DNA from: a virus
DNA length: 24,151 bases
Reading direction: 5' to 3' (one strand)
IMG/VR virus record: IMGVR_UViG_3300009701_000002
Span: 1 to 24,151 of that record
How positions within the stretch are numbered: position 1 is the first letter of the stretch; each line of letters starts with the position of its first letter. Position numbers and translations under genes: made by a program. The notes beneath the pieces are model-generated. The model saw nothing but the letters and a program-made list of their open reading frames with translations, ran no database searches and had not been told where the DNA came from. Shown piece by piece: positions 1-24,151 of the stretch.

Positions 1-123
1 CTTTGTTGGTTTTCGGTTAAGTCGTAAGCATAGTAGAGTTCCTCACAAGACATTTCTTCGTCTTTCATGTCTTTCTCCTGATCTCTCGTTCGAATTCGTC
101 CATTTCATTAATAACTTCTAATA
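1..123. repeat. Terminal direct repeat, copy 1 (identical to 24029-24151). Contains the 5' end of the 150-aa paralog (its ATG is at 66-68 on the minus strand).
   Basis: Base-by-base reading shows 1-123 equals 24029-24151. The repeat lies inside coding sequence, at the junction of two paralog genes. Confidence 0.9.
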
Positions 124-523
124 ACAATTCTTTGTAATCTTTGGCGTAGGGGGCGTGGGCATAGGCCCAGAAGGAGCCATAACCGACGGCGCCACATACG
201 GCGCAAATTGCGGCGAAATATATGGCTTCCTCCGATGCCACCCTGATACTATTCGAATCAGAAAGGTAAGAACCGCGCGGCAAGTAAGAATCATAATGGT
301 GGCGGGCGAAGAAAAAGGCTTTTTGTAATTCTTCTTTTGTAGATTGGCCTTTAATATAGCGCTCTACGACTTCGAGAGTTTTAATTACAATTTTATTTAT
401 TTCTTCATCTTTTGATTTTTCTAGCCAATATCTTGATATTTTTACAAGCCATTTCCTATTCTGGTTTTCGCTCAGGTCGTAAGCATTGTATAGTTCTTTT
501 AAAGTCATTTTTTTGTGGTTCAT
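65..523 (-). CDS. Hypervariable-core paralog P1 (152 aa), unknown function
   Basis: Shares an N-terminal block (LKELYxAYDLSENQxRKWLVK...ERYIKGQxTKEEL) and a C-terminal block (YKELLLEVINEMDEFEREIRRK) with five other ORFs. ATG 521-523 overlaps the upstream stop as ATGA. GAGG Shine-Dalgarno (SD) upstream. Confidence 0.85.
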   Translation of the reverse strand: MNHKKMTLKELYNAYDLSENQNRKWLVKISRYWLEKSKDEEINKIVIKTLEVVERYIKGQSTKEELQKAFFFARHHYDSYLPRGSYLSDSNSIRVASEEAIYFAAICAVCGAVGYGSFWAYAHAPYAKDYKELLLEVINEMDEFEREIRRKT

Positions 524-1671
524 GGTTTGACCTCTATGTTAATGGAACTGCCCCAAGACACTGGGGGTTTTTGAGTGCCAACTATAGCCCATAGAACAGG
601 ATAATTGGGACGTTTAATTTCTTCATTATCATAGCAGTCCATATCACCAAAATAGATTAATCCGTCTATAGCAATTCTTTGCTTATTAAACCAATCAAAA
701 GCTGGCTGGTAAGCCGTACCGCCCCTTCCTTTAATACTATACTTTTTCTTAGGATCAAATACGTAGCTATTCTTAACTTCGGCGTCCGCTTCCACGACTG
801 TCACTGTGGCGTATTTAGCTATTTCCGCGATTTCTGACATAAATTGGGTTAAAGCCTCGTCTGATACGCTTCCAGATGTGTCTATAGCAACTCCTAATTT
901 CAACCTTTCGATTTTTATATCACCGGGGATTGAAATGCCATATCTCCTGTTGCGCTTTTTTCTAGAGCTTTCAATGAAATATTCGACTTGTCTAGCTACG
1001 AAGCGCTTTAATTCTGCTCTCCAATCACGCGACGAGGCGTTTAACTTGGATACTAACAGCTCGTCATCACTACTCATTTTTCCAGCGCTTCTTGTGTTTT
1101 GGGCGGCCTCGTTAACCGCGTTTCTAATCTTTTGCCGCAAAGCATCAGTACTTTCTTCGGAATCGTCCCACAAGGGATGGCCGTCGTAGTCAGACCAATC
1201 TTTTGCTTTTTTGGATTTCTTTAAATTTTCATGATACCATTCCATGGTTTCCCCGTCGGGTAAGTCATAGAGAGCGGGCATTACAGCGAGAGAAGGAATA
1301 TTTGGAATACCGGGGTTAATGGAAAGATCACAGGCGACATTTATGAAGCGGTGTTTCATATTGTCAATCACGGCATCAGCCAGGTCTCTTTTTTTAGAAG
1401 AATATACATCGGGGGCTACTTCCCTTGAACGCGGTATATGATCGTGTAATATATGCTGGCATTCGTGTTTAAGAACAGCTACTTGCTCGGCGGGGGTTAA
1501 TTTATCAAAAAACTCCAAATTTACAAATAATTCTATTCGGTCTTTAATTCTTACGCCCGCCGTGTCAATAGATTTCGTTATTTTACGGTCCATTTGCATG
1601 ATAAGTTCACCATAGAAACGTTCCGATTCAAAAAGTCTAAGAATAGCTTTTGTAAGTGAATCTGCGCTCAT
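520..1671 (-). CDS. VWA-domain protein with an N-terminal HExxH metallopeptidase-like domain (DUF2201-like architecture)
   Basis: HECQHILHDH (HExxH) in the N-terminal half. MIDAS-like motif GVAIDTSGSVS in the C-terminal half. AAGGAG SD. ATGA overlaps at both ends. Confidence 0.8.
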   Translation of the reverse strand: MSADSLTKAILRLFESERFYGELIMQMDRKITKSIDTAGVRIKDRIELFVNLEFFDKLTPAEQVAVLKHECQHILHDHIPRSREVAPDVYSSKKRDLADAVIDNMKHRFINVACDLSINPGIPNIPSLAVMPALYDLPDGETMEWYHENLKKSKKAKDWSDYDGHPLWDDSEESTDALRQKIRNAVNEAAQNTRSAGKMSSDDELLVSKLNASSRDWRAELKRFVARQVEYFIESSRKKRNRRYGISIPGDIKIERLKLGVAIDTSGSVSDEALTQFMSEIAEIAKYATVTVVEADAEVKNSYVFDPKKKYSIKGRGGTAYQPAFDWFNKQRIAIDGLIYFGDMDCYDNEEIKRPNYPVLWAIVGTQKPPVSWGSSINIEVKP

Positions 1672-2105
1672 GCATTTCTCCTTATTTCTCGTTCAAACTC
1701 ATCCATTTCGTTAATAACTTCTAATAACAATTCTCTATATGAATTGTAGAAACGATCGTAAAAAGAATATGGTTGTTCGGAATTGTAAACGATTTGATCA
1801 GTGTAAATGGCCACCCTGGAAAAGGCAGCTCTGGCTGCGTAAGCAAGAGTTCCTGCATGATCGTACGTCATTGACCAGTAGGTACCGTAAGCGGCGTGCA
1901 ATTCTTCTTCTGTGGCTTGCTTTTTAGTGTAACGCTCCGCCACGTCTAAAATTTTTTTTGCAATTTTATTTATTTCTTGATCGGTTGATTTATTCATCCA
2001 ATATTTAGCGATTTTTACAAGCCATTTCCTTTGTTGGTTTTCACTCAAGTCGTAAGCGTCGTAGAGTTCTTTTAAAGACATTTCTTCGTGTTTTTTGTGG
2101 CTCAC
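1668..2105 (-). CDS. Hypervariable-core paralog P2 (145 aa)
   Basis: Same conserved termini as P1. GTG start overlaps the MoxR stop (GTGA). An ATG at 2081 is an alternative start. Confidence 0.8.
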   Translation of the reverse strand: MSHKKHEEMSLKELYDAYDLSENQQRKWLVKIAKYWMNKSTDQEINKIAKKILDVAERYTKKQATEEELHAAYGTYWSMTYDHAGTLAYAARAAFSRVAIYTDQIVYNSEQPYSFYDRFYNSYRELLLEVINEMDEFEREIRRNA

Positions 2106-3202
2106 GACGCACCTTTTGCTTCCTTTGTCATTTTAATTAAAATGTCTCTGTACTTTGGTTTGCTGTAAAAATCTTTGAAAATAGAATGCTCTAATTTTAT
2201 GATTTTTTTGATAGTCATAACCATAATGTCGCGAGGAATTGTAGTGAAATACTCCATAAGAGCCGCTTCTTCGTCTTTAGTAAAAGGTTGTTTATCTGTT
2301 TCGCGCTGCACGATATAATCGCGTAAATTGTCACCGGTAATCCCTAAGAGGCTCGAAGCTATGTTTTCAGGGTTAGACCATGTCTTTACTTTATTTAACC
2401 CGCTGCCGTTAAGGACTTCTGCCCCAGTCAAAGGTTTGTCTACGTTTTTTAAATGGAGTTCGTAAGCGACACTTCGCTCCAGACCTATTATACCGTGCAT
2501 GAGCTGGCTTAAAATATTATTTGGAACTCCAAGTTTAAAAAGTCTGTTAAGACGCTCGTAAGACCTTCTATCGACTTTTACTTGAAGATCAAAATTACTA
2601 TGTTTGTCTTCAAGAAAACTGGGCTGTTCTTTCAAAAAGCTAAGGATTGTAGGCTCAAAACTATTGCCTTTGGCGTATTCCATAAACTCTTCAAAGCTAG
2701 GTTCGAGTTTTATGTGCACAAACCGGGACATAAGTGCTGTGTCATTGACGTCTGTTACAAAGTATTCGTCTGTTGGTGGGTTACCGGCAGCAATGATGTG
2801 GCAGTTTTTTGGCAGTTTAATAGTGTGAAAAGTCTTGTCTAACGCCAAAGAGAACATACCGTTTAAAACGTCGCGTCTCGCCCGGTTAAACTCGTCCAAA
2901 AAGATAATAGCGCCGCTATCGGGGTTTTGTTCGCAGTAACGGATTGCGTCGTTAAGCCATTTAGGAGTCGCGAAATTTGTGGATTTGCTGCCGTCGCCGT
3001 TATCAACAAACTCAGCTAACCCCAAAACATCCCCTAAATCGCTTTGAGTGCCTAAATATAGCGGGAAAAAGTGGTAACCTTTACTCTGGGCGTATTGTTT
3101 GACGATAGAGGACTTTCCGATACCGGCTCGGCCCCAAAGAAACGCCGTTGTTTGGGCTTCGAAAAGATACGGAAGAGCAGTAGTCAAATCCTTGATATTC
3201 AT
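2102..3202 (-). CDS. MoxR/AAA_5-type AAA+ ATPase
   Basis: Walker A GRAGIGKSS. Walker B IIFLDEFNRA. Sensor-1-like IIAAGNP. Lies one gene upstream of the VWA partner, with paralog P2 between them. AAGGAAAG SD. Confidence 0.85.
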   Translation of the reverse strand: MNIKDLTTALPYLFEAQTTAFLWGRAGIGKSSIVKQYAQSKGYHFFPLYLGTQSDLGDVLGLAEFVDNGDGSKSTNFATPKWLNDAIRYCEQNPDSGAIIFLDEFNRARRDVLNGMFSLALDKTFHTIKLPKNCHIIAAGNPPTDEYFVTDVNDTALMSRFVHIKLEPSFEEFMEYAKGNSFEPTILSFLKEQPSFLEDKHSNFDLQVKVDRRSYERLNRLFKLGVPNNILSQLMHGIIGLERSVAYELHLKNVDKPLTGAEVLNGSGLNKVKTWSNPENIASSLLGITGDNLRDYIVQRETDKQPFTKDEEAALMEYFTTIPRDIMVMTIKKIIKLEHSIFKDFYSKPKYRDILIKMTKEAKGAS

Positions 3203-3245
3203 AAACTTTCCTTTGGCCTATGGCCATAATTGTTTTAGTTTAATA

Positions 3246-3506
3246 TTAGCACACGGGGGTGTTTTTGTATAGCTTTTCGAGGTTGGCTTTGATTTCCTCA
3301 TCGGTTAATTTTGGAGGCCGAGGAGCAAGGTATCTAGCCATGGCTTCTTCCTGAGCTTTTCTAGCGGCGCGGGTTTTGGCGTTAATTGAGATTTTTTCGC
3401 CGCCCCAAAGAATTAAAATGGCAAGCAAACTATCTAAAAAACTAAAGAGACAAAGCAGGCCAAAAATTGTCATTCCGAGATAAGCTAGTCCGTTAATAAA
3501 TCCCAT
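3246..3506 (-). CDS. Small membrane protein (86 aa); holin-like is only a guess
   Basis: Hydrophobic N-terminus (GFINGLAYLGMTIFGLLCLFSFLDSLLAILILWGG) followed by a charged tail. Strong AAGGAGG SD. Confidence 0.7.
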   Translation of the reverse strand: MGFINGLAYLGMTIFGLLCLFSFLDSLLAILILWGGEKISINAKTRAARKAQEEAMARYLAPRPPKLTDEEIKANLEKLYKNTPVC

Positions 3507-3616
3507 AAAATCCTCCTTAAAAGCAAGCTAGGTTTTACATCTTGCGACAACCGGTTTGATGCCCGAGGGCTTGACGCGGTTAACCTTGCTTACATAATAC
3601 TTATCGGACGACATCG

Positions 3617-3850
3617 TCAGGACTTTAGGCTATTGTTGAATTTATTTTTAAAAAATTCTACTACCTTGTCTTCAACTGACTTTACATGACGCTCAAATCC
3701 TTCCAGATCGTTTATGGCTTTTGTCTCAATCTGGTCCAACAAAAGCCTTACACTGTTACGTAAATTCCCGACTATATGGATTTCTGCGCCGCTCGTACAG
3801 TTACGAAGCGTCTCTTCTAAAGTCTCTAGCCTCTGTTTGTAGTCTATCAT
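3617..3850 (-). CDS. Hypothetical helical protein (77 aa)
   Basis: ATGA overlap with the upstream gene. No recognisable motif. Confidence 0.6.
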   Translation of the reverse strand: MIDYKQRLETLEETLRNCTSGAEIHIVGNLRNSVRLLLDQIETKAINDLEGFERHVKSVEDKVVEFFKNKFNNSLKS

Positions 3851-4425
3851 ACGCTGCTCGTACGTTTAGAAAGGCCGCTAACAAGCTCCATGAACTCTTG
3901 CATCGTCATTTTACCGGGTAAAGGGAACATGACGTTCTCGTTATCCACTATTAAAGTCAGGCCGACTTCGTAGTACCTAGCCTTTTTAGTTTCCTGTGGC
4001 ACGACTTTAGTAACTTCAGGTTGTACGGCAGCCGGTATTGGTAATTTGGTGAACTTAGGTTTGACTTCTTGCTTTTTTAGTGACTTATTTTGGGCCACAG
4101 CTGACATTCCTATACTTTGCAAAGTCATTGTTATACCGCCAAGCGAACGAAGCTTCCCACGAGGACTGAATTCAAGCTTACCGATACCGGATTGGCTCAT
4201 GAATTTCAGCTCAGCGCCTAACTGCTCTCGGCTAAACTCAAAGCCTTCTTTAGCCAGTGCTGTCTTTAAATTATGAATAGAGATTCTTTTCGTTGAACGT
4301 TCCCGCAAGGCAAAGACATGGCACATAGCGTTAAACGTCTCAGAAGACTTGGCGCGGTCTTGGAGTCTATTTATTAGAGTCGTGTTACCGTTGGCTGCTG
4401 CGGAAGTTACCATTGAAATTTCCAT
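3847..4425 (-). CDS. Hypothetical protein (192 aa)
   Basis: The ORF-track start at 4446 is a TTG. The ATG at 4423-4425 is preceded by AAAGGA plus a 6-nt spacer, so I moved the start to 4425. Confidence 0.7.
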   Translation of the reverse strand: MEISMVTSAAANGNTTLINRLQDRAKSSETFNAMCHVFALRERSTKRISIHNLKTALAKEGFEFSREQLGAELKFMSQSGIGKLEFSPRGKLRSLGGITMTLQSIGMSAVAQNKSLKKQEVKPKFTKLPIPAAVQPEVTKVVPQETKKARYYEVGLTLIVDNENVMFPLPGKMTMQEFMELVSGLSKRTSSV

Positions 4426-4593
4426 TTTACATCCTTTGTTTACCAACCGTGATTGGTTGATGATTATGGTTTATGCGAAGGATGTGCCACAGTCAATGCG
4501 GTTATAATTGATCTGGGCTTAAGCCTGTGTCAAAAGTCTTGTCGGAGGCCGTAAAATGTGAGGATTGTGGAAAGCCTTTGTGACGTGCAGCTG

Positions 4594-4620
4594 AATAAAA
4601 AAGCCCCCGTGAGGGGGCGC
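4594..4620 (-). terminator. Rho-independent terminator (minus strand)
   Basis: Minus-strand RNA reads GCCCCC-ucac-GGGGGC followed by UUUUUUAUU. It sits immediately 3' of pentamer array A. Confidence 0.85.
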
Positions 4621-4715
4621 AAAACAAAACATAACTTAACTAAACTCAACGTAACGCAACTCAACGCAACTAAACGTAACTTAACTTAACGCAACGAAAC
4701 GCAACTTAACTGAAC
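4621..4715 (-). repeat. Pentamer array A: 19 contiguous NNAAC units on plus (GUUNN in the minus-sense RNA)
   Basis: Read directly: aaaac aaaac ataac ttaac taaac tcaac gtaac gcaac tcaac gcaac taaac gtaac ttaac ttaac gcaac gaaac gcaac ttaac tgaac. Phase is never broken. Lies between the stop at 4747 and the terminator. Confidence 0.95.
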
Positions 4716-4746
4716 GCAAAAATTTTATTCAATATAAATTAAGTAA

Positions 4747-5283
4747 CTATTTTTCTCCGCGAAGCAAAGCTAGGGCTTTTAACTCATAATTAGCTTGGGC
4801 AATATAAGTCGCGTCTTTTACAGTTAACTTTTTTGAACCGTAAGCGTGATTTAAAAGTTGTGCGATGGCGCTGGTAGCCAATATTTTCGAGGTCACGATT
4901 TGTTTAAGATCAGCGCTGACTTGATCAAGGTCAATGTGTTCTAAACGCTTCCCAGTTTTTTCAACAGCGCTTATTAATTTAGTCTTTGCCTCGTCGTTAG
5001 CTGCATTATATTGGTTCTCGCCGGCGATTAGCTCGTACCCTTCGCCGTGTAAACGTTTTAAGCGCTTTTTGAGTTGACCGCCGATTTGCGGCTCCATGGA
5101 GCGGATACAGCTTTTAATTTCTGAAAGCTCAAGAGTTAAATTATTCTGTGTGCACATATCTTGTAGCGCGGAGTCTGTTAACTGTACCCCAGCTTGGGCG
5201 CTTGTTAAGTGTGACATAAGAATTTTTTTAAATTCTTCTCGTTTTACTTTTTTAGTAGCGTTTTTATCTGTACTTGTTAACAT
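4747..5283 (-). CDS. Hypothetical helical protein (178 aa)
   Basis: ATG preceded by a perfect AGGAGG. Flanked by pentamer arrays B (5') and A (3'). Confidence 0.8.
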   Translation of the reverse strand: MLTSTDKNATKKVKREEFKKILMSHLTSAQAGVQLTDSALQDMCTQNNLTLELSEIKSCIRSMEPQIGGQLKKRLKRLHGEGYELIAGENQYNAANDEAKTKLISAVEKTGKRLEHIDLDQVSADLKQIVTSKILATSAIAQLLNHAYGSKKLTVKDATYIAQANYELKALALLRGEK

Positions 5284-5285
5284 CT

Positions 5286-5320
5286 AATCCTCCTAGGATT
5301 GGTTAAAAAAATAGCGTAGC
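5286..5320 (-). promoter_or_regulatory. 5' leader: SD-sequestering hairpin (AAUCCU-AGG-AGGAUU) plus a conserved 17-mer box
   Basis: Inverted repeat at 5286-5300 includes the SD. The 17-mer taaaaaaatagcgtagc (5304-5320) is identical to 5941-5957. Confidence 0.6.
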
Positions 5321-5370
5321 AAAACACAACGCAACATAACTTAACTAAACAAAACACAACTAAACTTAAC
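5321..5370 (-). repeat. Pentamer array B: 10 contiguous NNAAC units
   Basis: aaaac acaac gcaac ataac ttaac taaac aaaac acaac taaac ttaac, bracketed by atagc/gtagc pentamers. Confidence 0.95.
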
Positions 5371-5386
5371 ATAGCTGAGAAAAAAA

Positions 5387-5920
5387 TCATTTTACAGTAA
5401 ATCTGCCGTATTCTGGACGATAATCGCCTACGCCTATAAATTTACCACCAACGTCTAAAAGTTCAAGTAAAATCTCGGGCGGAAACTGCTTTTCATCTGC
5501 AATTATGACATTAAGCGTTCCCGACCAGTCTTCAAGCTTAGGCCAAATCCTTAATATTTTTTTAGTGCCGTTCATACCGACAAAAGCCTGATGTTTATTT
5601 ACCTCGCTCACCGGTTGCTTTAAAAGCATGGAATCCGTAATAAATAGCACCGAATCAACTAAATCGGCGTATCCGCTTCGCTTGCCGGGTTGTTTAATAC
5701 CTGAGAATTTTGCGGCAGCTTTTAATGTTCCTTTCCAGACTCGGCTCGGAATGGCGAGCTTACCTCCTTCTAAATACATACGGGCGTTAAACATTTCGTC
5801 TCCCGCTTCCCAATCCTCGTGCTTTGTGCGCGCCGGCTTAGTTTTGGCCGTAAGCATCGAATTGATGTTATTCATTAACAGAGGCGTTACTGACTTTATC
5901 CCGTAGCTGACCGTTTTCAT
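5387..5920 (-). CDS. Hypothetical protein (177 aa) with RAMP-like motifs (tentative)
   Basis: Start moved to the ATG at 5918-5920 (MKTVSYG...), preceded by AGGAGG. The ORF-track N-terminal extension runs through the SD. The motifs AIPSRVWKGTLKAAAK and the C-terminal GVGDYRPEYGRF resemble the RAMP KG-x-LR motif and glycine-rich loop. Confidence 0.75.
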   Translation of the reverse strand: MKTVSYGIKSVTPLLMNNINSMLTAKTKPARTKHEDWEAGDEMFNARMYLEGGKLAIPSRVWKGTLKAAAKFSGIKQPGKRSGYADLVDSVLFITDSMLLKQPVSEVNKHQAFVGMNGTKKILRIWPKLEDWSGTLNVIIADEKQFPPEILLELLDVGGKFIGVGDYRPEYGRFTVK

Positions 5921-5957
5921 ATACCCTCCTAGGTATTTCTTAAAAAAATAGCGTAGC
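5921..5957 (-). promoter_or_regulatory. 5' leader: SD-sequestering hairpin (AUACCU-AGGA-GGGUAU) plus a conserved 17-mer box
   Basis: Same layout as 5286-5320 with compensatory stem changes. The 17-mer is identical. Confidence 0.6.
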
Positions 5958-5997
5958 AAAACATAACAAAACTGAACAGAACTAAACTCAACTTAAC
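5958..5997 (-). repeat. Pentamer array C: 8 contiguous NNAAC units
   Basis: aaaac ataac aaaac tgaac agaac taaac tcaac ttaac. Confidence 0.95.
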
Positions 5998-6026
5998 ACA
6001 TTACTAAGTTACTTATCGGAAGGTTG

Positions 6027-6167
6027 CTAGGAAACTTTAACTTTTTTAGTAGAAATATTTTTATTGTCTAAATCTGGGAATTTCTCTAAAGACCTACGAC
6101 GGCAGTTGCAATCTGGTAGTTTTGAATTGCACCGTGGGTAGATGCAGGAGTTTTTATTAGAGTTCAT
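6027..6167 (-). CDS. Small Cys-rich ORF (46 aa; MNSNKNSCIYPRCNSKLPDCNCRRRS...), not in the ORF track
   Basis: Hand translation. ATG overlaps the stop of P3 as ATGA. Four Cys in CxxxxC...CxC spacing. Confidence 0.45.
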   Translation of the reverse strand: MNSNKNSCIYPRCNSKLPDCNCRRRSLEKFPDLDNKNISTKKVKVS

Positions 6168-6583
6168 ATTTTTCTCCTTATTGTACGTTCAAACTCATCC
6201 ATTTCGTTAATCACTTCTAATAACAATTCTTTATAATCACTGGCACAGTAGGAATGATTCGTACGGCAATAACAGGAAACGGCGAAAGCAAGGTCACTGT
6301 TGTCAAGCGTGGCACATTCCGAAAGGCGGGAGGCGCCAGCGATGTTCAAGTCGTAGGAGCTGGAGGCCTCATGGTAAACTAATAGTAATTCTTCTTTTGC
6401 GGCTTCGCCTCTGATGTATTTCTCTACGATTTCTAGATTTTTATTTATAATTTTATTTATTTGTTCATCTTTTGATTGTTTTAGCCAATGTCTTGTTGTT
6501 TTTACAAGAAATTTCCTTTGTTGTTTTTCGGTTAGGTCGTAAGCCTCATGGAGTTCTTTTAAAGACATGTCTTGGTCTTTCAT
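6164..6583 (-). CDS. Hypervariable-core paralog P3 (139 aa)
   Basis: Conserved termini. ATGA overlap with P4. AAGGAGAAAG SD embedded in the last codons of P4. Confidence 0.85.
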   Translation of the reverse strand: MKDQDMSLKELHEAYDLTEKQQRKFLVKTTRHWLKQSKDEQINKIINKNLEIVEKYIRGEAAKEELLLVYHEASSSYDLNIAGASRLSECATLDNSDLAFAVSCYCRTNHSYCASDYKELLLEVINEMDEFERTIRRKI

Positions 6584-7008
6584 ATCTTTCTCCTTATCTC
6601 TCGTTCAAATTCATCCATTTCGTTAATAACTTCTAATAAGAATTTTTTCGACTCGAATTGAACCCAACTGTTTGCTTTTACTATGAAACGCCAATTAGCT
6701 TCTGGAGAAAGAATTATCTCTTTTGCGGCGACGGCAAAAGCTACGCAAACGAATTCATTGCCGCGGTATCGAATGCCCTTGGCCAAGTTTCGTGCTTCTT
6801 CTAGTTCTTTTTTTGTGGATTGGCCTTTAATGTAGCGTTCTACGACTTCTAAACCTTTTGTTAAGATTTCGAGGGATTTTTTGTCTTTTACGTTTTCTAG
6901 TTCACCTTTTGCTACTTTGACAAGAAATTTTCTTAACTGGTTTTCGCTCAGGTCGTAAGCAGTGTAGAGTTCGTCTGAAGACATGTCTTGGTCTTTTTTG
7001 TTGTTCAT
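6580..7008 (-). CDS. Hypervariable-core paralog P4 (142 aa)
   Basis: Start moved to the ATG at 7006-7008 (MNNKKDQDMSS...). This matches the other paralog N-termini, and the longer ORF-track version runs into the terminator hairpin. Confidence 0.75.
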   Translation of the reverse strand: MNNKKDQDMSSDELYTAYDLSENQLRKFLVKVAKGELENVKDKKSLEILTKGLEVVERYIKGQSTKKELEEARNLAKGIRYRGNEFVCVAFAVAAKEIILSPEANWRFIVKANSWVQFESKKFLLEVINEMDEFEREIRRKI

Positions 7009-7042
7009 ATAATAATACATTACTACAGAATTATGATTATTC

Positions 7043-7075
7043 AAAATAAAAAAGCCAGGATTTTTAGTCCTGGCT
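7043..7075 (-). terminator. Rho-independent terminator after the capsid gene
   Basis: Minus-strand RNA reads AGCCAGGA-cuaaaaa-UCCUGGCU followed by UUUUUAUUUU. Confidence 0.85.
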
Positions 7076-7100
7076 CAAAATAGCTAAATTAAGCTATTAA

Positions 7101-8296
7101 TTAAGCTGATAATTGAACAACGCAGTTCCATCCCGGGGCACTACAGATGAGGTTCCCGTAATAGCCGATGCGAATCTCAAGGGCGTCGGCGTTACCAACA
7201 CGCAGTCCTTCGAGACCTTCCATTCCATACGTCAGGATATGCGGTACTTTGCCCAAGGAGCGAAGTTTCCACGTATTCATAGTAAGGAGGTACGCAGTCT
7301 GGGGAGGGCAGCTACGATCAGCCAACACGGTCACGCGACCATATGCGGACTGGAACGTAATACCTTCGAATGCGACTTCAACTTCATCGTGGTTGACTTG
7401 AACGTACTGGACTTTAGCGCCCAAAGCGTTTACAAGTGCGGCATACGATGCGAAGTCCATGATGCAAAGGTCTGGTTTTCCGCCTTCACGGTTCAAGAAT
7501 GCCAACGCGTTCGTCAGACCTTCCTCGATGGTGTAGGCCTGTGCGTTATAGCGACAGCCAGCCAAACGAGTAGGATCAGCAGAACGGTTAACGCCCCAGA
7601 ACGAGTCGTTAGCAGCAGGGCTAGTAACAGGCAACCAAGCAGCTAAGCCGCTCAAAGCGAGGTACGAGCCAGTGTTGCTAGCGCCAGTTGCCGGCAAGTC
7701 ACCAGAAACGGTGAGGTAAGCCAATCCAGTTCCGATAGCCCAGTTACCAGACAAAGTAGCAGCCGAAGCTGTTCCGTTGATTACACCGGTTGCACGGTTA
7801 ACTGCAGTGATCAGCACGGTGTCCGTCGAAGGAGCTCCACCATCAGAAGCCGAAGCAACTAACAGCATTCCAACTTCGAAAGCAACGATTTGCTGAGCGT
7901 TGGTCAAAGGAAGGGTTACACCACCGGGTGCAATACCGCCGACTTGGCTAGAAGCAGCCGAGGAAACGCCACGGGTAGCAGTACCAGAACCAAACAACTC
8001 AAAAGCGATGTTGTTAGTAATGTTACGGAAACCGCCGTCCATTTGAAGCTTAGCAGCGTCAACAAAAGCGCCTGCATTTGTCTTAGTCTGTTCCATCAAC
8101 AAGTTAGTGATAGTAACTAATTGATAGTCTTCGATTACGTACACGAAGTACGAAACAAGTGCTGTAGGCGTTTGCTGTGCTTGCGCGTTAGCAAACTGGT
8201 GAGAACGACCCTGGGGGGTTCCATACTCAAGGGGGACTGGTATGTATTTACCAGCGAACCCGTCTGGGCTTTCATTTTTTGGTACAAGGGCTAAGA
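7101..8296 (-). CDS. Major capsid protein, exon 2
   Basis: The frame stays open upstream of the ORF-track GTG (8144) to 8296 without any start codon (..FLALVPKNESPDGFAGKYIPVPLEYGTPQGRSHQFANAQAQQ..). Position after portal and scaffold, higher GC than neighbours, terminator downstream. Confidence 0.8.
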
Positions 8297-9030
8297 CAAA
8301 TTGTTATCGTGCTGGCTTTTTATCCTGCACTTCTAATGCTTAGAGAGCTTTATTAGACTTTCGTCTATTTTGCTCGACAGTTAAATACTGTAAGTTCCAA
8401 GGAACATGCAGACCTTTAACGTTCTTTCCTTGAAGCGGTATAATATGATCTACTTCACAGCCTTCTGGACAATTGATATAGATTAATTCCATATCTCTGA
8501 GTTGTGTTTCAGATAGCCAGTAAGGAGTAGCATTCAGCTTAGCGGCTTGGTACTTTCGGGTTTTAGCTAATACTTTTTTATTATTAGCTTTATTCCAATT
8601 TGACTTACTATTTTTTACGGCTTGGGGGTTTTCTTTGACGTACTTGTCTTTGAGTGCCTTTGATCGCTCTGGATTCTTTTGTCTCCAAGCTGTTCCGTAT
8701 TTTTTAAGTCTACCTTGCTCGTTTTTGCATGCCTTACACCAACTGTTAAGCCCATTTAGATTTCTAGCGTCTTTCGAAAAATCGCTAAATTCTTTAGACT
8801 TTGTGCATTTAGTGCAAGTTTTCATACCCTTCTTCGCATTAGTTCGGCGTACATTTTCAACTCGTAAAAGTTGCCTACCACTCTTGGTACTATTTTATTC
8901 TAGCATTATCCCTGCTAGGTTCAAGTACTACGCTCTACACTGGTACAGTCTTATTATGGACCATACTTAGCACGGTATTAGCATTTCAGCCTTCACCGTT
9001 TTTGGTTGGTTTTAAATCCCCGCTTAATCC
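8297..9030 (-). mobile_element. Group I-like self-splicing intron (734 nt) carrying an HNH homing endonuclease ORF
   Basis: - P1 helix: exon AAAUCCCU (9038-9031) pairs with intron GGGGAUUU (9021-9014), with a G-U wobble at the splice-site U.
- The intron ends in G (8297).
- Joining the exons restores the frame: ..KENP-F-LALVPK.
- A 7-bp helix, CUAAUGC (8842-8836) with GCAUUAG (8339-8333), loops out the ORF. Confidence 0.75.
8340..8825 (-). CDS. HNH homing endonuclease (161 aa)
   Basis: N-terminal CxxC...CxxC zinc motif. C-terminal EVDHIIP...HVPWNLQYLTVEQNRRKSNK (the H-N-N/H core). Has its own SD (GAAGAAGGG). Confidence 0.85.
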   Translation of the reverse strand: MKTCTKCTKSKEFSDFSKDARNLNGLNSWCKACKNEQGRLKKYGTAWRQKNPERSKALKDKYVKENPQAVKNSKSNWNKANNKKVLAKTRKYQAAKLNATPYWLSETQLRDMELIYINCPEGCEVDHIIPLQGKNVKGLHVPWNLQYLTVEQNRRKSNKAL

Positions 9031-9181
9031 AGGGATTTTCCTTGTAAACAAGGTCCTTCATATATTCTTTCATGATATCAAGGACTTACAAGAAAAGACG
9101 ACAAAGAATTTAAATATCGTCTGTATACAATTCTTTTAACGCAGCGATTTGGTTCGCTGAGTTGGCATATGTTGCAGCCAT
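9031..9181 (-). CDS. Major capsid protein, exon 1. It is interrupted by in-frame TAA codons at 9110-9112 and 9086-9088, and the start is unresolved between ATG 9181 and ATG 9073.
   Basis: The ATG at 9179-9181 has AGGAG plus 8 nt upstream (MAATYANSANQIAALKELYTDDI*). In the same frame, 9073-9031 encodes MKEYMKDLVYKENP before the 5' splice site. Confidence 0.55.
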
Positions 9182-9363
9182 TTGGCTACTCCTATATTAA
9201 AATTAACTGAGATATGTCGACATGACATATTTGTCAGGTTCCTTAAATTCTTACGATGAGTGCCCAGGTCGTGGGTCTAGCATCCAAATCAAGGACTCCA
9301 ATGCCGAAGCAAGGGAGGGGGTTAATTCACCGATTGCTAATACTATGCGGTAAACGCCGAAGC

Positions 9364-10368
9364 TTATTGCTTCAGCTCGCCTTTAAACGCCAGCACTGCC
9401 CTCTCCTTCGCGCTTAGCGGGCGCGTCGAAGCAGCTGAATTCGTTAAGGTTTTCATAGTTTGTGGCTGCGGAGATTTTGGTGGCTGCTTCTGGGCTGTCG
9501 TCTCAGGTGCTAATTGAGGCGCCAGTCGCTTTTTGATCTTCTCTATACGTGTTAATTTGTCAATTTCTTCAACTAGGTGTTCTTCCACGAGTTTTGCGGC
9601 TTCTTCAACGGACATGACTTCTTGGGTGTCTTTAAAATGTGCCTCTATAAGCTCTACGACGTCTTTAATAGAATTTGTGGCTTTAATTGTTTCAAACTCT
9701 GGATTCGACATTACTAAGCTTTTGGCGTCTTGAGTGATTTGCTTTACAGCCGCTTTATAAGCCTCGCCTTGCTGTTCTTGGGCTTGGGCCTTACTAGCGG
9801 TCAATTCAGCTTCTAACTTGGCTTGGCGGGCTTCTAGGCGATCTATATACGATTTTACCGCGGGGGGTACGGTTCCGGCGGAGAGTTGCTGCTGAGTGAC
9901 TTCATCGTATGTCACACCGGCTTCTGCCAATGCGTCCAGTGTCTGTTCTTTAAGTCTTTGTTTTGAAACGTAATTGGATTCGTATTCGGCGAGTTTTGCG
10001 TTTAATTCAGCTTCTTTAGCCTTAAAAGCTTCTTCCCTGGCTTTAATAGCTTTTTCTTGTTCTTGTTGTTTGGCGCGAAGTGCTCTTTCTTTTCTAGCCA
10101 AGAGCTGGAGTTGGGCACTATAAGTCGTCTCTTCAGTCTTAGGTTCTTCGGTTTTTGGTGTTTCTTTGACTTCGGGCTCATTTTCCGTTGGTTTTTGAGC
10201 ACTCACCGCTCCTAATTCTTCTACGGAGATGTTTTGTGGGTTTTCTAGCGGTACGGGTTGTTGGCTCCTGAGCTGTTCAAAGGCGGCTATGGCTTTGGCT
10301 CTAGAGTCTTGGCCGCTGCTTTGGGCGTTGCTAGGCGAAGTTGGGGCGGTGAGTGGTGTGACTTTCAT
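9364..10368 (-). CDS. Scaffolding protein (334 aa)
   Basis: A/E/K/Q-rich coiled-coil composition. Lies between the portal and capsid genes. Confidence 0.65.
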   Translation of the reverse strand: MKVTPLTAPTSPSNAQSSGQDSRAKAIAAFEQLRSQQPVPLENPQNISVEELGAVSAQKPTENEPEVKETPKTEEPKTEETTYSAQLQLLARKERALRAKQQEQEKAIKAREEAFKAKEAELNAKLAEYESNYVSKQRLKEQTLDALAEAGVTYDEVTQQQLSAGTVPPAVKSYIDRLEARQAKLEAELTASKAQAQEQQGEAYKAAVKQITQDAKSLVMSNPEFETIKATNSIKDVVELIEAHFKDTQEVMSVEEAAKLVEEHLVEEIDKLTRIEKIKKRLAPQLAPETTAQKQPPKSPQPQTMKTLTNSAASTRPLSAKERAVLAFKGELKQ

Positions 10369-10378
10369 TTGTTATTCC

Positions 10379-12268
10379 TTATGCTTGGGGGGTTGCGTTA
10401 GGGACTAAAGGACTCTGTGGCTGTGGTTGGGGTTGGGCCTGAGGCGGATTGGCCATAGGCATAGGTGGAGGCATGGCGGCTTGTTTAATGGCTTGTAATT
10501 GGTTAAAGAAATCACGGAGTTTTTCAGCCTTTGATTCTTCTAACTTGGCCTGGGTATATAGATTTATATACTGGGTCGTCAGCGTTGTGGCTAAGGCTAT
10601 GTCCATAAACGGATCTGGCGGGGTGTATTTACCAGACTCTACGATTTCGTCTAGGATTTGTAAGATACGTTCTTCTGAGGCGTTAGCAAGCTTTTCGACC
10701 TGCTCTAGATCTGGGTAGTCTAATAGCCTCCTGCCTTCTTGGAGGCTTACCATACCGCTTTGGACCATCTCGGTGACTTTTTGGAGACGGCCTGCTGGGT
10801 CTTTAGGTAGACTACTCTGGGTGAAACACTGGATTACGAAATCGTCGTGTATTAACGCCGCTTTAGGAAGGTCAATTTCTTTTGTACCGTTTTTATTAGG
10901 ATAGACGGTCTGATACTCTCCGTCGCGAATTGCGATATCTTTAGCCAAATCAATAACCTGATAGGCAAGATCGATAAAGCAGTTATCATACCGACGGGAC
11001 AGAGACGCGAAACGATCTGTTGAAATATCATCATAGGTCCTGATCGCTTCACCACTATCAAGACCTTGTGGCTTTTGAGAGGACGCCTGCAAAGCAGACA
11101 CTCCGGATTGCTGATAACCATATTGTATAAGCTTGTCTCGTTCTGCGTATAACTCGGGCGCATTACAAGGAGCAACCTCGTAACTCGGTTTAGTTCCACG
11201 ATACTTGACAATGACTCCGACCTCGTTATTATGAGCGGCAGCCATAACTTTTGAACCGTCCTCTTGAAATACTCGAGGAACACCAACAAGCTTAATAGCA
11301 CGAGATATAGTGAACAAAATACTGTTAAGCTCCATTTGCGTACCCATGAGTTGTTCAGCGACTCCCTGGGACCAAAAGCCAAGTAACCGAGGGCTATAAT
11401 GGAGAAAAGTAAAAGGAAAGCGATCTTTAGTATATTCCTCATCGATTAAGCTTCCTGCGCTACACGCCAACGTATGCCGTCCGTCATTGACATTTTTACC
11501 AGACGGTAAAGACCAGCCCTCTACAACCATTACTAAATCGGATACGGTTTTTGAGCTATCAGCGGAATTGTCTGGGAAAGCTTTTGCCGCCATAGCAATC
11601 TTGTCTTTAAATTTAGGGAAATTAGCAAATAAGACGTCCCTATCGATGAGTTTGATCCGGTATATACGTCTCGGCTCTCCGTACATGCTTTCGTTGGGGT
11701 CTACAAGTAATTCCGTTAATAGGACTCGCTCTAGGCCTACTTTTCTGTCAGGGGTCTCAAACGTATGGAATACGCCTGTCCCTGCCACTAAAGCGTCCCT
11801 AAGGACTATAGGAGCCAAGTCATAAGCCTTTGTCTGGTAAAACTCTCCCAAAAGGAAGTTGTTTAATTTCTTGGCTAGGTTTCTTTGCTTATAATCAGCG
11901 TTGTCAGTTAAAAACACCGGTTGGGGCCTGGATTGCGAGATACGCGATACCAGGGTATCTACTACGCTTTGGATGAGGTTAAACGTAGGCCGCTCCATTG
12001 GAAGGCCGTAATTCTGATCCATTTTGCTAATATTGTTACCGGCAAAGGAATAGAGGCTTTGGTTACCATAGAGTCTTGCGTAAACCGCGGTTTGTCTATA
12101 CCGGTAAGTCTGTGTTTCTTTTAAATATGCTGCTTTGGTAAGCATCTCCGCTGCGCATTTATCGCTGTCTTCGGCTTCCCACCATTTTGCTAGCGTAGTC
12201 GTTTCGTCGACGTTACGCGTCTTCATGGTGATTTTAGAGGGCGGTCCTTTGGCGTTGCTGACTTTCAT
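10379..12268 (-). CDS. Portal (head-tail connector) protein (629 aa)
   Basis: Size and position upstream of scaffold and capsid, downstream of the terminase region. P/Q-rich C-terminal tail. Assigned by synteny only; no diagnostic motif was readable by eye. Confidence 0.65.
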   Translation of the reverse strand: MKVSNAKGPPSKITMKTRNVDETTTLAKWWEAEDSDKCAAEMLTKAAYLKETQTYRYRQTAVYARLYGNQSLYSFAGNNISKMDQNYGLPMERPTFNLIQSVVDTLVSRISQSRPQPVFLTDNADYKQRNLAKKLNNFLLGEFYQTKAYDLAPIVLRDALVAGTGVFHTFETPDRKVGLERVLLTELLVDPNESMYGEPRRIYRIKLIDRDVLFANFPKFKDKIAMAAKAFPDNSADSSKTVSDLVMVVEGWSLPSGKNVNDGRHTLACSAGSLIDEEYTKDRFPFTFLHYSPRLLGFWSQGVAEQLMGTQMELNSILFTISRAIKLVGVPRVFQEDGSKVMAAAHNNEVGVIVKYRGTKPSYEVAPCNAPELYAERDKLIQYGYQQSGVSALQASSQKPQGLDSGEAIRTYDDISTDRFASLSRRYDNCFIDLAYQVIDLAKDIAIRDGEYQTVYPNKNGTKEIDLPKAALIHDDFVIQCFTQSSLPKDPAGRLQKVTEMVQSGMVSLQEGRRLLDYPDLEQVEKLANASEERILQILDEIVESGKYTPPDPFMDIALATTLTTQYINLYTQAKLEESKAEKLRDFFNQLQAIKQAAMPPPMPMANPPQAQPQPQPQSPLVPNATPQA

Positions 12269-12518: not shown

Positions 12519-13619
12519 CTATTTGATTAGGGCGCTTTTAATCTTCATTTTGCGACGAATAGCTGACACAATGTCAGAATCGTGGATGTTTTGAGCAGCG
12601 TCTTCGCGGCTATCGCCCATTTCGTTACTGTCTTCTGGGCTGTCTAATTCATCTAAACCAGCAGATTCACTGTAGTTTTCTTTACGTAAAGCATTGAATG
12701 AACTCTGATCTTCCATGTTGGCGTCTTCGTCTGCGTTGCGGCTCAGATCTGCTTCGCTGCTATCGTCGGAATCCATTGAATCCATAGACTTAATAGCTCC
12801 GCCTTCAGCCATCATCTTTTTCTTCATTTTCATCATAATGGCTGCTGCAATAGAAGCTGCGTGTTCGATTTCTTCTTCGTCGCTGACTTCTCCGCCGTCT
12901 GCGTAAGCGGCGGCATCTCTCATAGACATGTAATCGTCTTCTGCTGGACGCATCATATCGTCGTCAGACTCAAGCCCTGCGGGGTCGTCTTGCATATCTT
13001 CTTCTGGACTTGATCCGTATTCTTCACTTACGTTGCTTGAGAGTTTTGCTCGCTTGGCTTCGTCTTCATCTTTAGAGCCCGAAGCCATTCCACCTTCTGC
13101 GTAGGCTTTGCGGGTAGTGTGGGGTTTTGCCATATCAGGGCTTTTACCCATTTTTTTGGCGTCTTTCTCGTCGTCTACTTCTGGGGGCTGTTCTTCTGGG
13201 CTTGCGGGTGCGTCTACGTCTTGTAAGTGTGCTTCGTCGTCATATAACCGTACGCTGAACGCGTCACTAGGGACCATTCTGGGGCGTTTAATGGGCATTA
13301 CTTTACGGCCGTTGTTCATGACGGCTTGTTTTTCGGTGGGTTTATCCGTCCAACTGTCTTCTTTTGGAGCTTTATTGCCGGAATTCTTAGCGGCCATTTT
13401 TGAGTCATCGTATTTGTTGTCTGGCATTGGCCGTTTTTCGTCACTAGCGCTTACGGATCCACCTTCAGCCATCATTTTACCGCCCATTGCTTTTTTGGGG
13501 GCTTTGCGCTTAACTGAGTACGCTATGGCCAATGATTGCTTCATTGGTTTACCGGCGTCCATTTCTGCAGCAACGTTTTTACCGAATGCTTTTTTTGATT
13601 TAGAGTTCATTAGTGGCAT
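12519..13619 (-). CDS. Acidic low-complexity protein (366 aa) with four (M/Y)A(E/D)GG motifs; possible internal or ejected virion protein
   Basis: Repeated motifs MMAEGG, YAEGG, YADGG and MMAEGG are separated by D/E/S-rich stretches. Basic N-terminus (KQSLAIAYSVKRK). Confidence 0.65.
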   Translation of the reverse strand: MPLMNSKSKKAFGKNVAAEMDAGKPMKQSLAIAYSVKRKAPKKAMGGKMMAEGGSVSASDEKRPMPDNKYDDSKMAAKNSGNKAPKEDSWTDKPTEKQAVMNNGRKVMPIKRPRMVPSDAFSVRLYDDEAHLQDVDAPASPEEQPPEVDDEKDAKKMGKSPDMAKPHTTRKAYAEGGMASGSKDEDEAKRAKLSSNVSEEYGSSPEEDMQDDPAGLESDDDMMRPAEDDYMSMRDAAAYADGGEVSDEEEIEHAASIAAAIMMKMKKKMMAEGGAIKSMDSMDSDDSSEADLSRNADEDANMEDQSSFNALRKENYSESAGLDELDSPEDSNEMGDSREDAAQNIHDSDIVSAIRRKMKIKSALIK

Positions 13620-13996
13620 TAGAAAGCACCTTCAGACACCGAGAGTGTCATTTTGACCGAGTTAAGCATTGCGGAATCCGATGCCAGACTTGAGCTCAGT
13701 ACAAACGTAATGACATCGCCGGCCGAACACGATACCGCCAAAAGACCAAAACCTAATGCACCTGCTTGACCGGTATATATGGTCGTGCCGTTTTGTTTTA
13801 CAGTGACTACGACTTGTGACGGGCTGATAGAAGCTACTGCCGATCCAGTCCCAGCTCCACCGCCTGGACCTTGAGCCGCTGTAGGTACTGCTGTTGGTAC
13901 AGTCAAAGTTCCTTCAAAGTTGTATAAATCGGTTGTGGGGATGTTTACGGTGTATGTCTGTAATCCTGTGTAAGTAGCGCTTTGTACAAATGCCAT
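13619..13996 (-). CDS. Small beta-rich, Gly/Thr/Val-rich structural-looking protein (125 aa)
   Basis: Composition and raised GC resemble the capsid gene. TAATG overlaps at both ends. Confidence 0.65.
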   Translation of the reverse strand: MAFVQSATYTGLQTYTVNIPTTDLYNFEGTLTVPTAVPTAAQGPGGGAGTGSAVASISPSQVVVTVKQNGTTIYTGQAGALGFGLLAVSCSAGDVITFVLSSSLASDSAMLNSVKMTLSVSEGAF

Positions 13997-14325: not shown

Positions 14326-15762
14326 TTAGTCGTATTCACCTTTTAGCCATTTTGAATAAGAATCTTCTTGTTGGTATCCTTCGAGTTCTTTTTCAAACAT
14401 GCCGGTCTCTTGTAACTCGGCCCATTCCTTTGTACCCCACTTTGGCTTTTCTGGACCCGGGGGCTGATGGGTAAATGCGTAGCTTTCTTTGAAAGCGTAA
14501 AGAACGGCGTCAATTATGTCGCTATGGGGTTTTTTCTTTACCACGATTTTATTAGGAGTAGTTCTGTCCCAATCGATTTGAATTAAATAACTGTCTTGCG
14601 CAAAGCGGGAATTGTTTTTGGCTTTGAATTTACCGAGTCTCAAAGAATCGTTTAAAAGTTCGACGTTTTCTTGTTTACGGAGTTTATCTGCCGGCTCTAC
14701 GTTAATGGCGTGCCTGCGCCTGACTTCTTCGGCTAGTTTTTTACCCAAGCCGCCTTCATCCATGACAACTTTTGATATGTCGTATTTTTTGTGCATACGG
14801 TTCATTTGTTCTACGAGTTCGGTCAAGCCTTGTTTTTTAGTAATACACTCTTCTACCAAGTAAGTCTCAGGGCTAGTATCTGACCATGCCAATATTGCTA
14901 TGGCGTCGGCGTCGTTATAGCCTATATCTACGCCCATTATGTAACTCCATGCATGACCAGAAGGGAGGTCTTGGTAATGGTTTTTAGCGGCGCTGTACCT
15001 TACCCATAGAGACTCGACATCCAGTACCCACTGATTCCGGTATTCACGTAAAAGCGTGGGGTTGTCTGGTTGCCATTCGCGTTTCTTTATTATGTCCGCA
15101 ATGAAAGACTCTGGGTCTGGCATATGAGGGTTATCTAACAAAGTCCATTCATGGTGGCTATACCCGTATTTGTGATTCTTTGTTACGTCAAAAAAATAGC
15201 CTTGAGGAACTGGTCCTGGAGTACCGGTTAAAGCTAACCAGCCGTCCGTATAGTCGGCTATGGACGGAGTTAGGACGTCATCTACTAGGGACTGGAGATG
15301 TATCCCAAAGTCTTGCGCTTCGTCTATACCAACTCCGGGGTATTTACGTCCTTTGAGGCGTTTAATGAAGTTTTTCATGTCGGCGCCAAATAGCCTAAGG
15401 GTAGATCCGTTTGGGTGTTTCATAGTCAGCTTTGACTCGGTGAAACTACAGCCTATTTGGTATTTGTCGTTTATTTCTTGTAATACCGGCCATAGAATCT
15501 CTCGAGCCGACTCAAGAGTAAGTCCTAAATAGATACACTGAGATTTTGGATGTTTTTCTAGTGTTTTAAAAAATCTCAAAGCTAGCCCATTAGTTTTACC
15601 GGCGCGTCGGGAGCACTGTGCACTTATGTAACGTGAGGTGTCTTCAACAAAAGAGTTTTGCTGAGGAAAATTCCCGCTAAGTCTAACTTCATTTGAAATG
15701 ATCTTGGAATTACGCTTAACGATTTCGTTTAAAATACTGGTTTTGCTGCTGTTTTGACCCAA
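14326..15762 (-). CDS. terL: Terminase large subunit (478 aa)
   Basis: Walker A-like SRRAGKTNG. Walker B-like VGIDEAQDF. C-terminal nuclease-like MGVDIGYNDADAIAIL. TTG start directly after the upstream TGA; no in-frame ATG before the Walker A. Confidence 0.85.
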   Translation of the reverse strand: MGQNSSKTSILNEIVKRNSKIISNEVRLSGNFPQQNSFVEDTSRYISAQCSRRAGKTNGLALRFFKTLEKHPKSQCIYLGLTLESAREILWPVLQEINDKYQIGCSFTESKLTMKHPNGSTLRLFGADMKNFIKRLKGRKYPGVGIDEAQDFGIHLQSLVDDVLTPSIADYTDGWLALTGTPGPVPQGYFFDVTKNHKYGYSHHEWTLLDNPHMPDPESFIADIIKKREWQPDNPTLLREYRNQWVLDVESLWVRYSAAKNHYQDLPSGHAWSYIMGVDIGYNDADAIAILAWSDTSPETYLVEECITKKQGLTELVEQMNRMHKKYDISKVVMDEGGLGKKLAEEVRRRHAINVEPADKLRKQENVELLNDSLRLGKFKAKNNSRFAQDSYLIQIDWDRTTPNKIVVKKKPHSDIIDAVLYAFKESYAFTHQPPGPEKPKWGTKEWAELQETGMFEKELEGYQQEDSYSKWLKGEYD

Positions 15763-22211: not shown

Positions 22212-22604
22212 CTATGCTCCTTTGGCTGTTAAGCCGGTTATTGCGTACGTAGAACCATTATCTAAATAAATTCTTTCGCCCATCCATTCTTGACATGGCT
22301 TATCGTCAATATAAGCTATCGGCTTAGACATTACAACCAATCTTTTGTGATCAATGTTAAGAGCTCGTAAAGCAGCTCTAGCCCATTTCCAGCCAGCTGC
22401 AGACCACACAAACACCGTGGCACCGCGCTCAAGTCGGTCTTTTAATATCTTTACGTGTGCCCGGTGAGGCTTTACATAAAGCTGAGCCTTAGTATAAGGG
22501 TCTGTAAACTGTACACATTCCTCTCCTTTGGCTATCTTGCCCCAAAGCAAAAGCGTAAAATCTACGTCTACCATCAAGACTTGCTCACTTTTTACTGTTA
22601 GCAT
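22212..22604 (-). CDS. HAD-superfamily hydrolase-like protein (130 aa)
   Basis: Motif I LMVDVDFTL (DxDxT). Start moved to the ATG at 22604, preceded by AAGGAA. Confidence 0.55.
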   Translation of the reverse strand: MLTVKSEQVLMVDVDFTLLLWGKIAKGEECVQFTDPYTKAQLYVKPHRAHVKILKDRLERGATVFVWSAAGWKWARAALRALNIDHKRLVVMSKPIAYIDDKPCQEWMGERIYLDNGSTYAITGLTAKGA

Positions 22605-23034: not shown

Positions 23035-23171
23035 TTCTGTTCTCCTTTGTACTTTGGACAGTATTCGCTATGCTTGTCTGATGAAATGCTAGCACAACCG
23101 CATTCGCATTGCAAATAATCCTTCCATAACTTTTGGTGTTTAGGAACCGGTAATCTAACTATTTCTTTCAT
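23016..23171 (-). CDS. Small Cys-rich ORF (51 aa; ..YLQCECGCASISSDKHSEYCPKYKGEQKC..), not in the ORF track
   Basis: Hand translation. ATGA overlap with the stop of P5. Contains the SD of the next gene. Confidence 0.45.
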   Translation of the reverse strand: MKEIVRLPVPKHQKLWKDYLQCECGCASISSDKHSEYCPKYKGEQKCKPVK

Positions 23172-24096: not shown

Positions 24097-24151
24097 GTCT
24101 TTCTCCTGATCTCTCGTTCGAATTCGTCCATTTCATTAATAACTTCTAATA
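24029..24151. repeat. Terminal direct repeat, copy 2 (identical to 1-123). Includes a duplicated partial 3' end of P1 (24093-24151, minus strand).
   Basis: Identical to 1-123 on direct reading. Confidence 0.9.

Follow-up and report, generated by a model that had tools for sequence, protein, structure and literature searches.

A 24-kb viral record without tail genes is very probably a false closed assembly of part of a larger podovirus genome

Introduction

Is a viral record that encodes its own DNA polymerase, terminase, portal and capsid, and nothing recognisable as a tail, a complete genetic element or a fragment of one? The question is raised by IMG/VR record IMGVR_UViG_3300009701_000002, whose entire 24,151 bases were analysed here (hereafter, the window), and which is classed as having direct terminal repeats (DTR) and as 100% complete. 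All credible genes of the window are carried by its minus strand, and their identities were taken from Pfam and PHROG scans of 34 open reading frames (ORFs) of that strand. None of the 34 matched a tail, lysis or RNA polymerase family, and the first-pass annotation of this DNA, which had reported no recognisable tail, endolysin or RNA polymerase genes, described the 24-kb record correctly. The polymerase, primase-helicase, terminase, portal and capsid genes that it named each have a Pfam or PHROG match, and downstream of the capsid gene there are, as it stated, only paralogs, small ORFs, pentamer arrays and a MoxR/VWA cluster.

Three explanations had been offered for this gene content: a capsid-encoding satellite that borrows tails from a helper, very divergent minimal tail proteins among the uncharacterised ORFs, or an assembly that is incomplete and was closed by way of the paralog repeats. 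Our analysis bears out the last of these, in that the overlap between the ends of the record has the length of the assembler's largest k-mer, lies on a paralog junction and is common to the end of a second contig. The window is very probably a false closed assembly that holds about 43% of a genome of about 55 kb, belonging to an uncultivated podovirus whose probable tail genes are on the second contig; the lack of tail genes in the record would then follow from an assembly artefact and a false 'complete' call. The podovirus would have SU10-like head and adaptor proteins and probably comes from a peat-moss habitat.

Results

The end overlap is a paralog junction of k-mer length

Positions 1-123 and 24029-24151 of the window are 100% identical. 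On the minus strand this overlap spans the last 19 codons and the stop codon of the paralog at 65-523 and the first 22-23 codons of the next paralog. It is not intergenic, and falls on the most conserved part of a family of paralogs of about 150 amino acids (aa), at a tandem stop-to-start junction. Six copies, recognised by alignment, lie in the window:

65-523, minus strand: paralog, 152 aa, immediately follows the VWA gene and is the final gene ahead of the junction
1668-2105, minus strand: paralog, 145 aa, between the MoxR and VWA genes
6164-6583, minus strand: paralog, 139 aa, member of a tandem pair (also repeat families D1, D2 and D4)
6580-7044, minus strand: paralog, 154 aa, member of the same tandem pair, directly after the capsid gene (also repeat families D1, D2 and D4)
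23168-23647, minus strand: paralog, 159 aa, in a tandem pair at the upstream contig end
23644-24096, minus strand: paralog, 150 aa, in the tandem pair at the upstream contig end

Three more lie on the second contig described below (L068:13548-14847), which makes at least nine copies in all. Their N-terminal 80 residues or so are conserved, as is a C-terminal 'LLEVINEMDEFER.IRRK' motif; the core between them is hypervariable, frequently with many Ala and Tyr residues. With at least nine copies that have highly conserved ends, one tandem stop-to-start junction would recur without a mismatch, for 123 nt or more, in two or more places of the assembly graph. Within the window itself, a third copy of the end overlap, with 86% identity, lies at the internal junction 6516-6638.

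The Joint Genome Institute (JGI) runs MEGAHIT with k-mer sizes of 23, 43, 63, 83, 103 and 123, the last being the largest (PMC9302102, PMC6646334). Closed assembly paths keep a repeat of length k at their ends, and repeats that are also present away from the termini give rise to false DTR calls (PMC8116208). Since the length of the overlap equals the assembler's largest k, it proves only that the graph closed at this 123-mer. A genuinely complete DTR or circular genome was considered and rejected: the overlap of exactly 123 nt is explained by k-mer overlap alone; the terminal sequence is not unique, as it recurs at the end of contig Ga0116228_10001531 and in the 86% copy just mentioned; and the 24 kb of the window compare with 54-59 kb in five relatives whose capsids are 85-92% identical to that of the window.

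A second contig stops at the same junction

A 40-nt pattern covering the central part of the repeat was searched for in metagenome contigs, and the only contig found was Ga0116228_10001531 (19,286 bases; locus L068). A 70-nt pattern from the repeat matched nothing in viral contigs, and a degenerate 20-mer for the conserved C-terminus of the paralogs gave 28 matches in viral contigs, none of which encodes the paralog family. The last 123 nt of Ga0116228_10001531 (L068:14780-14902) are 100% identical to the window repeat and the contig stops at the same base, while the base just before the repeat differs between the two sequences. A 123-mer that is common to this contig end and has a different flanking base indicates a branching node of the graph and not an isolated cycle. 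Among five sequences compared, the window was the best match of Ga0116228_10001531 in tetranucleotide usage (r = 0.78). Furthermore, full-length close copies of the paralog are confined, among 115 related loci, to the window and this contig.

Read on the window's coding strand, the second contig carries paralogs of 141, 146 and 146 aa, followed by genes for proteins of 91 and 140 aa, and then of 356, 98, 362, 1108, 135, 507, 828 and more than 824 aa. This gene block is collinear with the block that follows MoxR/VWA in the related genomes G001-G003. The 356-aa protein has an N-terminal FN3 domain and belongs to a family of more than 4,000 database proteins. The SU10_adaptor family (PF24175) is matched by 12 of 25 homologues at 70-95% identity, with a best E value of 4.5e-7, and one homologue, P0014, passes the curated cut-off of 27 bits with a score of 27.3. 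In the 1108-aa protein, residues 94-494 give a confident beta-propeller model (predicted template modelling score, pTM, 0.76), for which structural matches were obtained at Z 20-28.6 and a root-mean-square deviation of 3-4 Å over about 280-345 aligned residues. The modelled propeller fits a nozzle or tailspike protein and is not diagnostic of either. The large proteins encoded on the second contig, and the corresponding G001 proteins, matched no tail family in Pfam or PHROG, apart from the N-terminus of the adaptor, where an Ig/FN3-type match leads to 'major tail protein' or Hoc-like families. From its position, its size and the adaptor match, we infer that the large-gene block after the adaptor is a tail module.

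The closest homologue of the adaptor (L068:11592-12662) is P0001, at 95% identity, which NCBI lists as an unnamed Sphagnum balticum protein on a 56.7-kb contig. That contig is probably one of a phage that was included in the genome assembly of a peat moss, and it suggests peat moss as the habitat.

Full-length relatives contain both contigs in order

A capsid search of IMG/VR returned 57 related loci. Capsid relatives at 85-92% identity include contigs of 53-59 kb, and five of these in the same identity range, G001-G005, measure 54-59 kb and have a CheckV completeness estimate of 100%. Gene order was compared along the full length of G001, G002 and G003. Starting at the diphosphohydrolase, their genes run parallel to those of the window through the polymerase, terminase, portal and capsid genes, and on to MoxR/VWA where present; the three genomes then continue into the large-gene block of Ga0116228_10001531, at 30-73% identity, and past it into further genes that include SbcCD-like, RecA-like, Clp-protease-like and collagen/PA14 genes. 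The order in the relatives is replication, terminase, portal, capsid, variable island, adaptor and large-gene block, and the window is without the adaptor, the large-gene block and the early genes that the relatives possess. Distant members of the paralog family number none in G001, two in G002 and five in G003, and in the last two genomes one of them stands directly after VWA, as in the window.

The distance between capsid and adaptor is also in keeping with the relatives. Of the 22 loci whose sequence extends 10 kb past the capsid gene, 18 have an adaptor 0.8-10 kb downstream of it; the distance is about 1 kb in two distant relatives and 13.5 kb in G003, and it would be 9.2 kb if the window were joined to the second contig. 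Those relatives of 24-28 kb that were checked are linear fragments with an estimated completeness of 46-57%. The common 123-mer, the gene content of the second contig, and the synteny and genome size of the relatives are direct observations. Among the scanned proteins of G001 and G002 no endolysin was identified, and a search of the five full-length relatives for a T7-type RNA polymerase (PF00940) gave no match, although the control genomes gave none either, so that the enzyme's absence is not shown by this search.

Discussion

How a closed 24-kb record could arise, and what else could explain it

The closure of the record can be pictured as follows. At k = 123 the assembler would leave the paralog junction, cross the replication, packaging and head genes, the island, MoxR/VWA and the last paralog, and return to the same 123-mer; the closed path would yield identical contig ends and be scored as 'DTR, 100% complete'. 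The real path would most likely run on from VWA and the 152-aa paralog into Ga0116228_10001531, bringing three paralogs, two small genes, the FN3-containing adaptor, the 1108-aa beta-propeller protein and further large virion proteins, and a third piece of the genome would hold the early genes (SbcCD and RecA-like in the relatives). We thus infer that the window and the second contig belong to one genome.

Several points weigh against this account. The two contigs may come from different samples. Together they imply a 'lollipop' graph in which, read in the sense of transcription, a single path leads to the 123-mer and two paths lead away from it, and no third contig entering the loop with early genes was found. 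The sequence alone is compatible with a genuine circular by-product. As regards the tail module, the 356-aa protein itself does not reach E 0.01 against SU10_adaptor, and its structural model is poor outside FN3, with a badly folded adaptor domain. The adaptor profile searched against solved structures returned FN3 domains only, and in Foldseek and VIA searches with the adaptor model FN3 matches filled the results, so that these searches bear on FN3 and hardly on the adaptor domain itself. The matches of the 1108-aa propeller are to propellers generally, and not to podovirus nozzle proteins in particular.

The single path into the 123-mer is what a true circle would give in the company of a second molecule with the same junction, and conserved paralog junctions are plausible substrates for recombination. 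The 24-kb circle might then be real, a satellite-like or defective mini-genome formed by recombination between paralog junctions of a 55-kb phage and borrowing its tails and early functions. We consider this very unlikely: the overlap has the assembler's k as its length and hence gives no independent evidence of circularity, a capsid 85-92% identical to those of 54-59 kb relatives suggests a head sized for about 55 kb, and no closed 24-kb form was seen among the 57 capsid-bearing loci, which come from other samples. The Pfam and PHROG scans of the window ORFs likewise gave no integrase, recombinase or satellite-type gene, and no host-like flanking sequence was seen. The capsid-encoding satellite proposed in the first-pass annotation, and any capsid-forming satellite as a discrete, recurrent element, find no support on the same grounds, the unit not being a closed genome. 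It is highly improbable, too, that a sub-genomic circle of 24 kb, with its own polymerase, helicase and heads, parasitises the full-length phage as a satellite born from its own helper.

That the 24-kb unit is complete, with a tail made of very divergent small proteins (those of 125, 366, 190, 178 and 199 aa), is an idea that draws on the lack of a family match for most of these ORFs, which leaves their folds unconstrained; we regard it as extremely improbable. Homologues of the 125-aa and 366-aa proteins, which had been put forward as candidate minimal tail proteins, stand at the same position in the 54-59 kb relatives, and these encode a separate adaptor and a block of 350-1200-aa proteins. 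The 366-aa protein had no match to solved structures, and its Atlas model is largely disordered (predicted local distance difference test score, pLDDT, 0.44). The ORFs of 190, 178, 86 and 77 aa have no or almost no homologues in the 115 related loci, and since essential tail parts would be conserved, such near-orphans speak against a minimal tail. The 177-aa candidate is a plus-strand ORF at 7113-7646, antisense to the capsid gene; it lies in the only kilobase of the window with a positive AT skew (50% GC), and is most likely not a gene.

An alternative of another kind grants that the window is incomplete and holds that Ga0116228_10001531 comes from a co-occurring sister strain, the window's own continuation being a similar but different contig. 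Between the paralogs of the second contig and those of the window, DNA identity is only 72-85%, and the GC content of the two contigs differs (46.4% against 42.9%). Yet the window paralogs differ equally among themselves (62-86%), the GC gap matches the one seen within the genome between head/tail and other regions, and an identical 123-mer at the exact contig end is the product expected of a single assembly graph. A sister strain is therefore unlikely, and a falsely closed part of one podovirus genome of about 55 kb, continued on the second contig, remains the explanation that we prefer.

Comparison with known systems

The window resembles the false 'DTR complete' contigs described for CheckV and IMG/VR (PMC8116208) in having an end repeat of length k with copies away from the termini and in being much shorter than the genomes of its relatives. 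It differs from the usual false DTRs in that its repeat is a stop-to-start junction of a coding family and not a low-complexity or CRISPR-like array, and because the repeat is a multi-copy coding junction, the filters commonly applied, for low complexity or for more than five copies, miss it.

Likeness to Escherichia phage SU10 and Kuravirus is seen in the capsid, which passes the SU10_MCP cut-off, in the adaptor family with its SU10_adaptor matches, in the order of portal, scaffold and capsid followed by adaptor and large virion proteins, and in that no T7-type RNA polymerase was seen. Unlike them, the present lineage has a genome of about 55 kb, an N-terminal FN3 domain on the adaptor and, separating the capsid and adaptor genes, a hypervariable island of 0.8-13.5 kb; the portal of the window scores better against P22_portal (30.4 bits) than against SU10_portal (PF23899; 17.4 bits, cut-off 30); and the window has no detectable similarity to any isolated phage, neither the whole window (megablast) nor the portal (tblastn) matching any of 50,697 phage records. 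The lineage is abundant, judged by its more than 4,000 adaptor-homologue proteins, and is without a known isolate. Satellites of the cf-PICI type (capsid-forming phage-inducible chromosomal islands) are similar at face value, with packaging and head genes and no tail genes; unlike them, the window has its own DNA polymerase and primase-helicase and no integrase, is not closed, and would have its tail genes on an adjoining contig.

If the window is a falsely closed fragment, as we think very probable, its missing tail genes have no biological meaning and the satellite idea is to be dropped. A public record labelled 'DTR, 100% complete' would then hold about 43% of a genome, and such records can bias statistics of genome size, surveys for satellites and collections of complete reference genomes.

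Replication, packaging and head genes of the window

The genes of the window that are collinear with G001-G003, from the diphosphohydrolase to the scaffold, are as follows:

22585-23034, minus strand: protein with a dATP/dGTP diphosphohydrolase N-domain (PF18909, E 2e-33)
19849-21714, minus strand: primase-helicase with a DnaB-like C-terminal domain and a primase-like N-terminal domain (Pfam and PHROG)
17793-19925, minus strand: PolA, a family A DNA polymerase with a 3'-5' exonuclease domain (DNA_pol_A, E 1e-65)
14326-15762, minus strand: large terminase subunit (phrog_2, E 1e-29)
12519-13996, minus strand: 366-aa and 125-aa proteins, between terminase and portal (positional homologues in G001-G003)
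10379-12268, minus strand: portal (P22_portal, 30.4 bits, cut-off 26.1; phrog_156, E 7e-13)
9364-10368, minus strand: putative scaffold, a positional name (42-50% identity to a 345-351-aa protein of G001-G003)

The scaffold gene named in the first-pass annotation has homologues of 345-351 aa at the same place in G001-G003, between portal and capsid; it has no family match, and its name is positional. In G004, the match to the DNA polymerase (G004:C1:13106-15193) holds one in-frame TAA. No RNA families or tRNAs were found in the window with Rfam at gathering thresholds and ARAGORN.

The capsid gene is interrupted by an insertion

The capsid gene of the window is divided into two segments:

9026-9181, minus strand: 5' part of the capsid gene (residues 1-37), with a 15-codon alignment gap (tblastn of the G001 capsid)
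8340-8825, minus strand: endonuclease VII/HNH-like ORF, within the insertion between the two capsid segments (phrog_1035, E 7.5e-20)
7101-8294, minus strand: 3' part of the major capsid protein gene (residues 37-432 of the 432-aa protein of the relatives; 92% identity to the G001 capsid)

With the G001 capsid as tblastn query, residues 37-432 align at 8294-7104 and residues 1-37 at 9181-9026, and the two segments are separated by about 730 nt that contain the endonuclease ORF. The ORF at 7101-8144 matches SU10_MCP (PF17236) over residues 181-299, at 26.3 bits against a cut-off of 24.1. The true capsid gene is longer than this ORF, its first 37 codons lying upstream of the insertion. No intron family reached the Rfam gathering score in the insertion.

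An accessory island between capsid and adaptor

Downstream of the capsid gene the window has ORFs of 46, 190, 178, 199, 77 and 86 aa. Reading with an alternative genetic code (TGA as W, or TAG as Q) was tried and rejected, as under neither reading do the small ORFs of 3000-9500 merge into long genes. The features of this region, with the MoxR/VWA cluster that follows it, are these:

5958-5997, minus strand: (GTTNN)8 array, upstream of the 190-aa ORF (sequence pattern)
5387-5959, minus strand: 190-aa ORF, phrog_4652, function unknown (E 1.5e-18)
5321-5370, minus strand: (GTTNN)10 array, upstream of the 178-aa ORF (sequence pattern)
4747-5283, minus strand: 178-aa orphan ORF (weak phrog_5926 match, E 0.004)
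4596-4715, minus strand: (GTTNN)19 array, then a GC hairpin and T run (sequence pattern)
3847-4446, minus strand: 199-aa accessory ORF (no Pfam or PHROG match)
3617-3850, minus strand: 77-aa accessory ORF (no Pfam or PHROG match)
3246-3506, minus strand: 86-aa accessory ORF (no Pfam or PHROG match)
2102-3202, minus strand: MoxR-type AAA+ ATPase (AAA_5, E 7e-10)
520-1671, minus strand: VWA-like protein, putative metallopeptidase domain at its N-terminus (DUF2201_N and DUF2201; Pfam E 5e-18 and 6e-15)

The three (GTTNN)n arrays, of 19, 10 and 8 units, are strictly phased. The longest runs directly into the GC hairpin and T run, which look like an intrinsic terminator. After each of the other two come GCTACGCTATTTTTTTAA, identical in both, a Shine-Dalgarno sequence and the start codon of the 178-aa or the 190-aa ORF. 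The related loci, about 990 kb in all, have no (GTTNN)n array of at least six units.

The ORFs of 86, 178 and 190 aa have no homologue in any of the 115 related loci, and a search of viral contigs gave no relative of the 190-aa ORF. The 77-aa ORF has one weak match, at 30%, in G001, and the 199-aa ORF has homologues of 32% identity in eight loci, that of G001 lying between capsid and adaptor. In contrast, homologues of the capsid, portal, scaffold and terminase are present in 51-90 of the related loci. Homologues of MoxR are found in 12 related loci, and those of the VWA/DUF2201 protein, at 56-59% identity, in 11. Positions 3246-7100 belong to an accessory island that is specific to the strain and occupies a hypervariable site, with the capsid gene on one side and the adaptor gene on the other. 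The capsid-adaptor interval looks like a hotspot for the insertion of accessory genes (MoxR/VWA, paralogs and orphan ORFs), and the island may merit study in its own right. Across the relatives (L002-L058), this interval ranges from about 0.8 kb to 13.5 kb.

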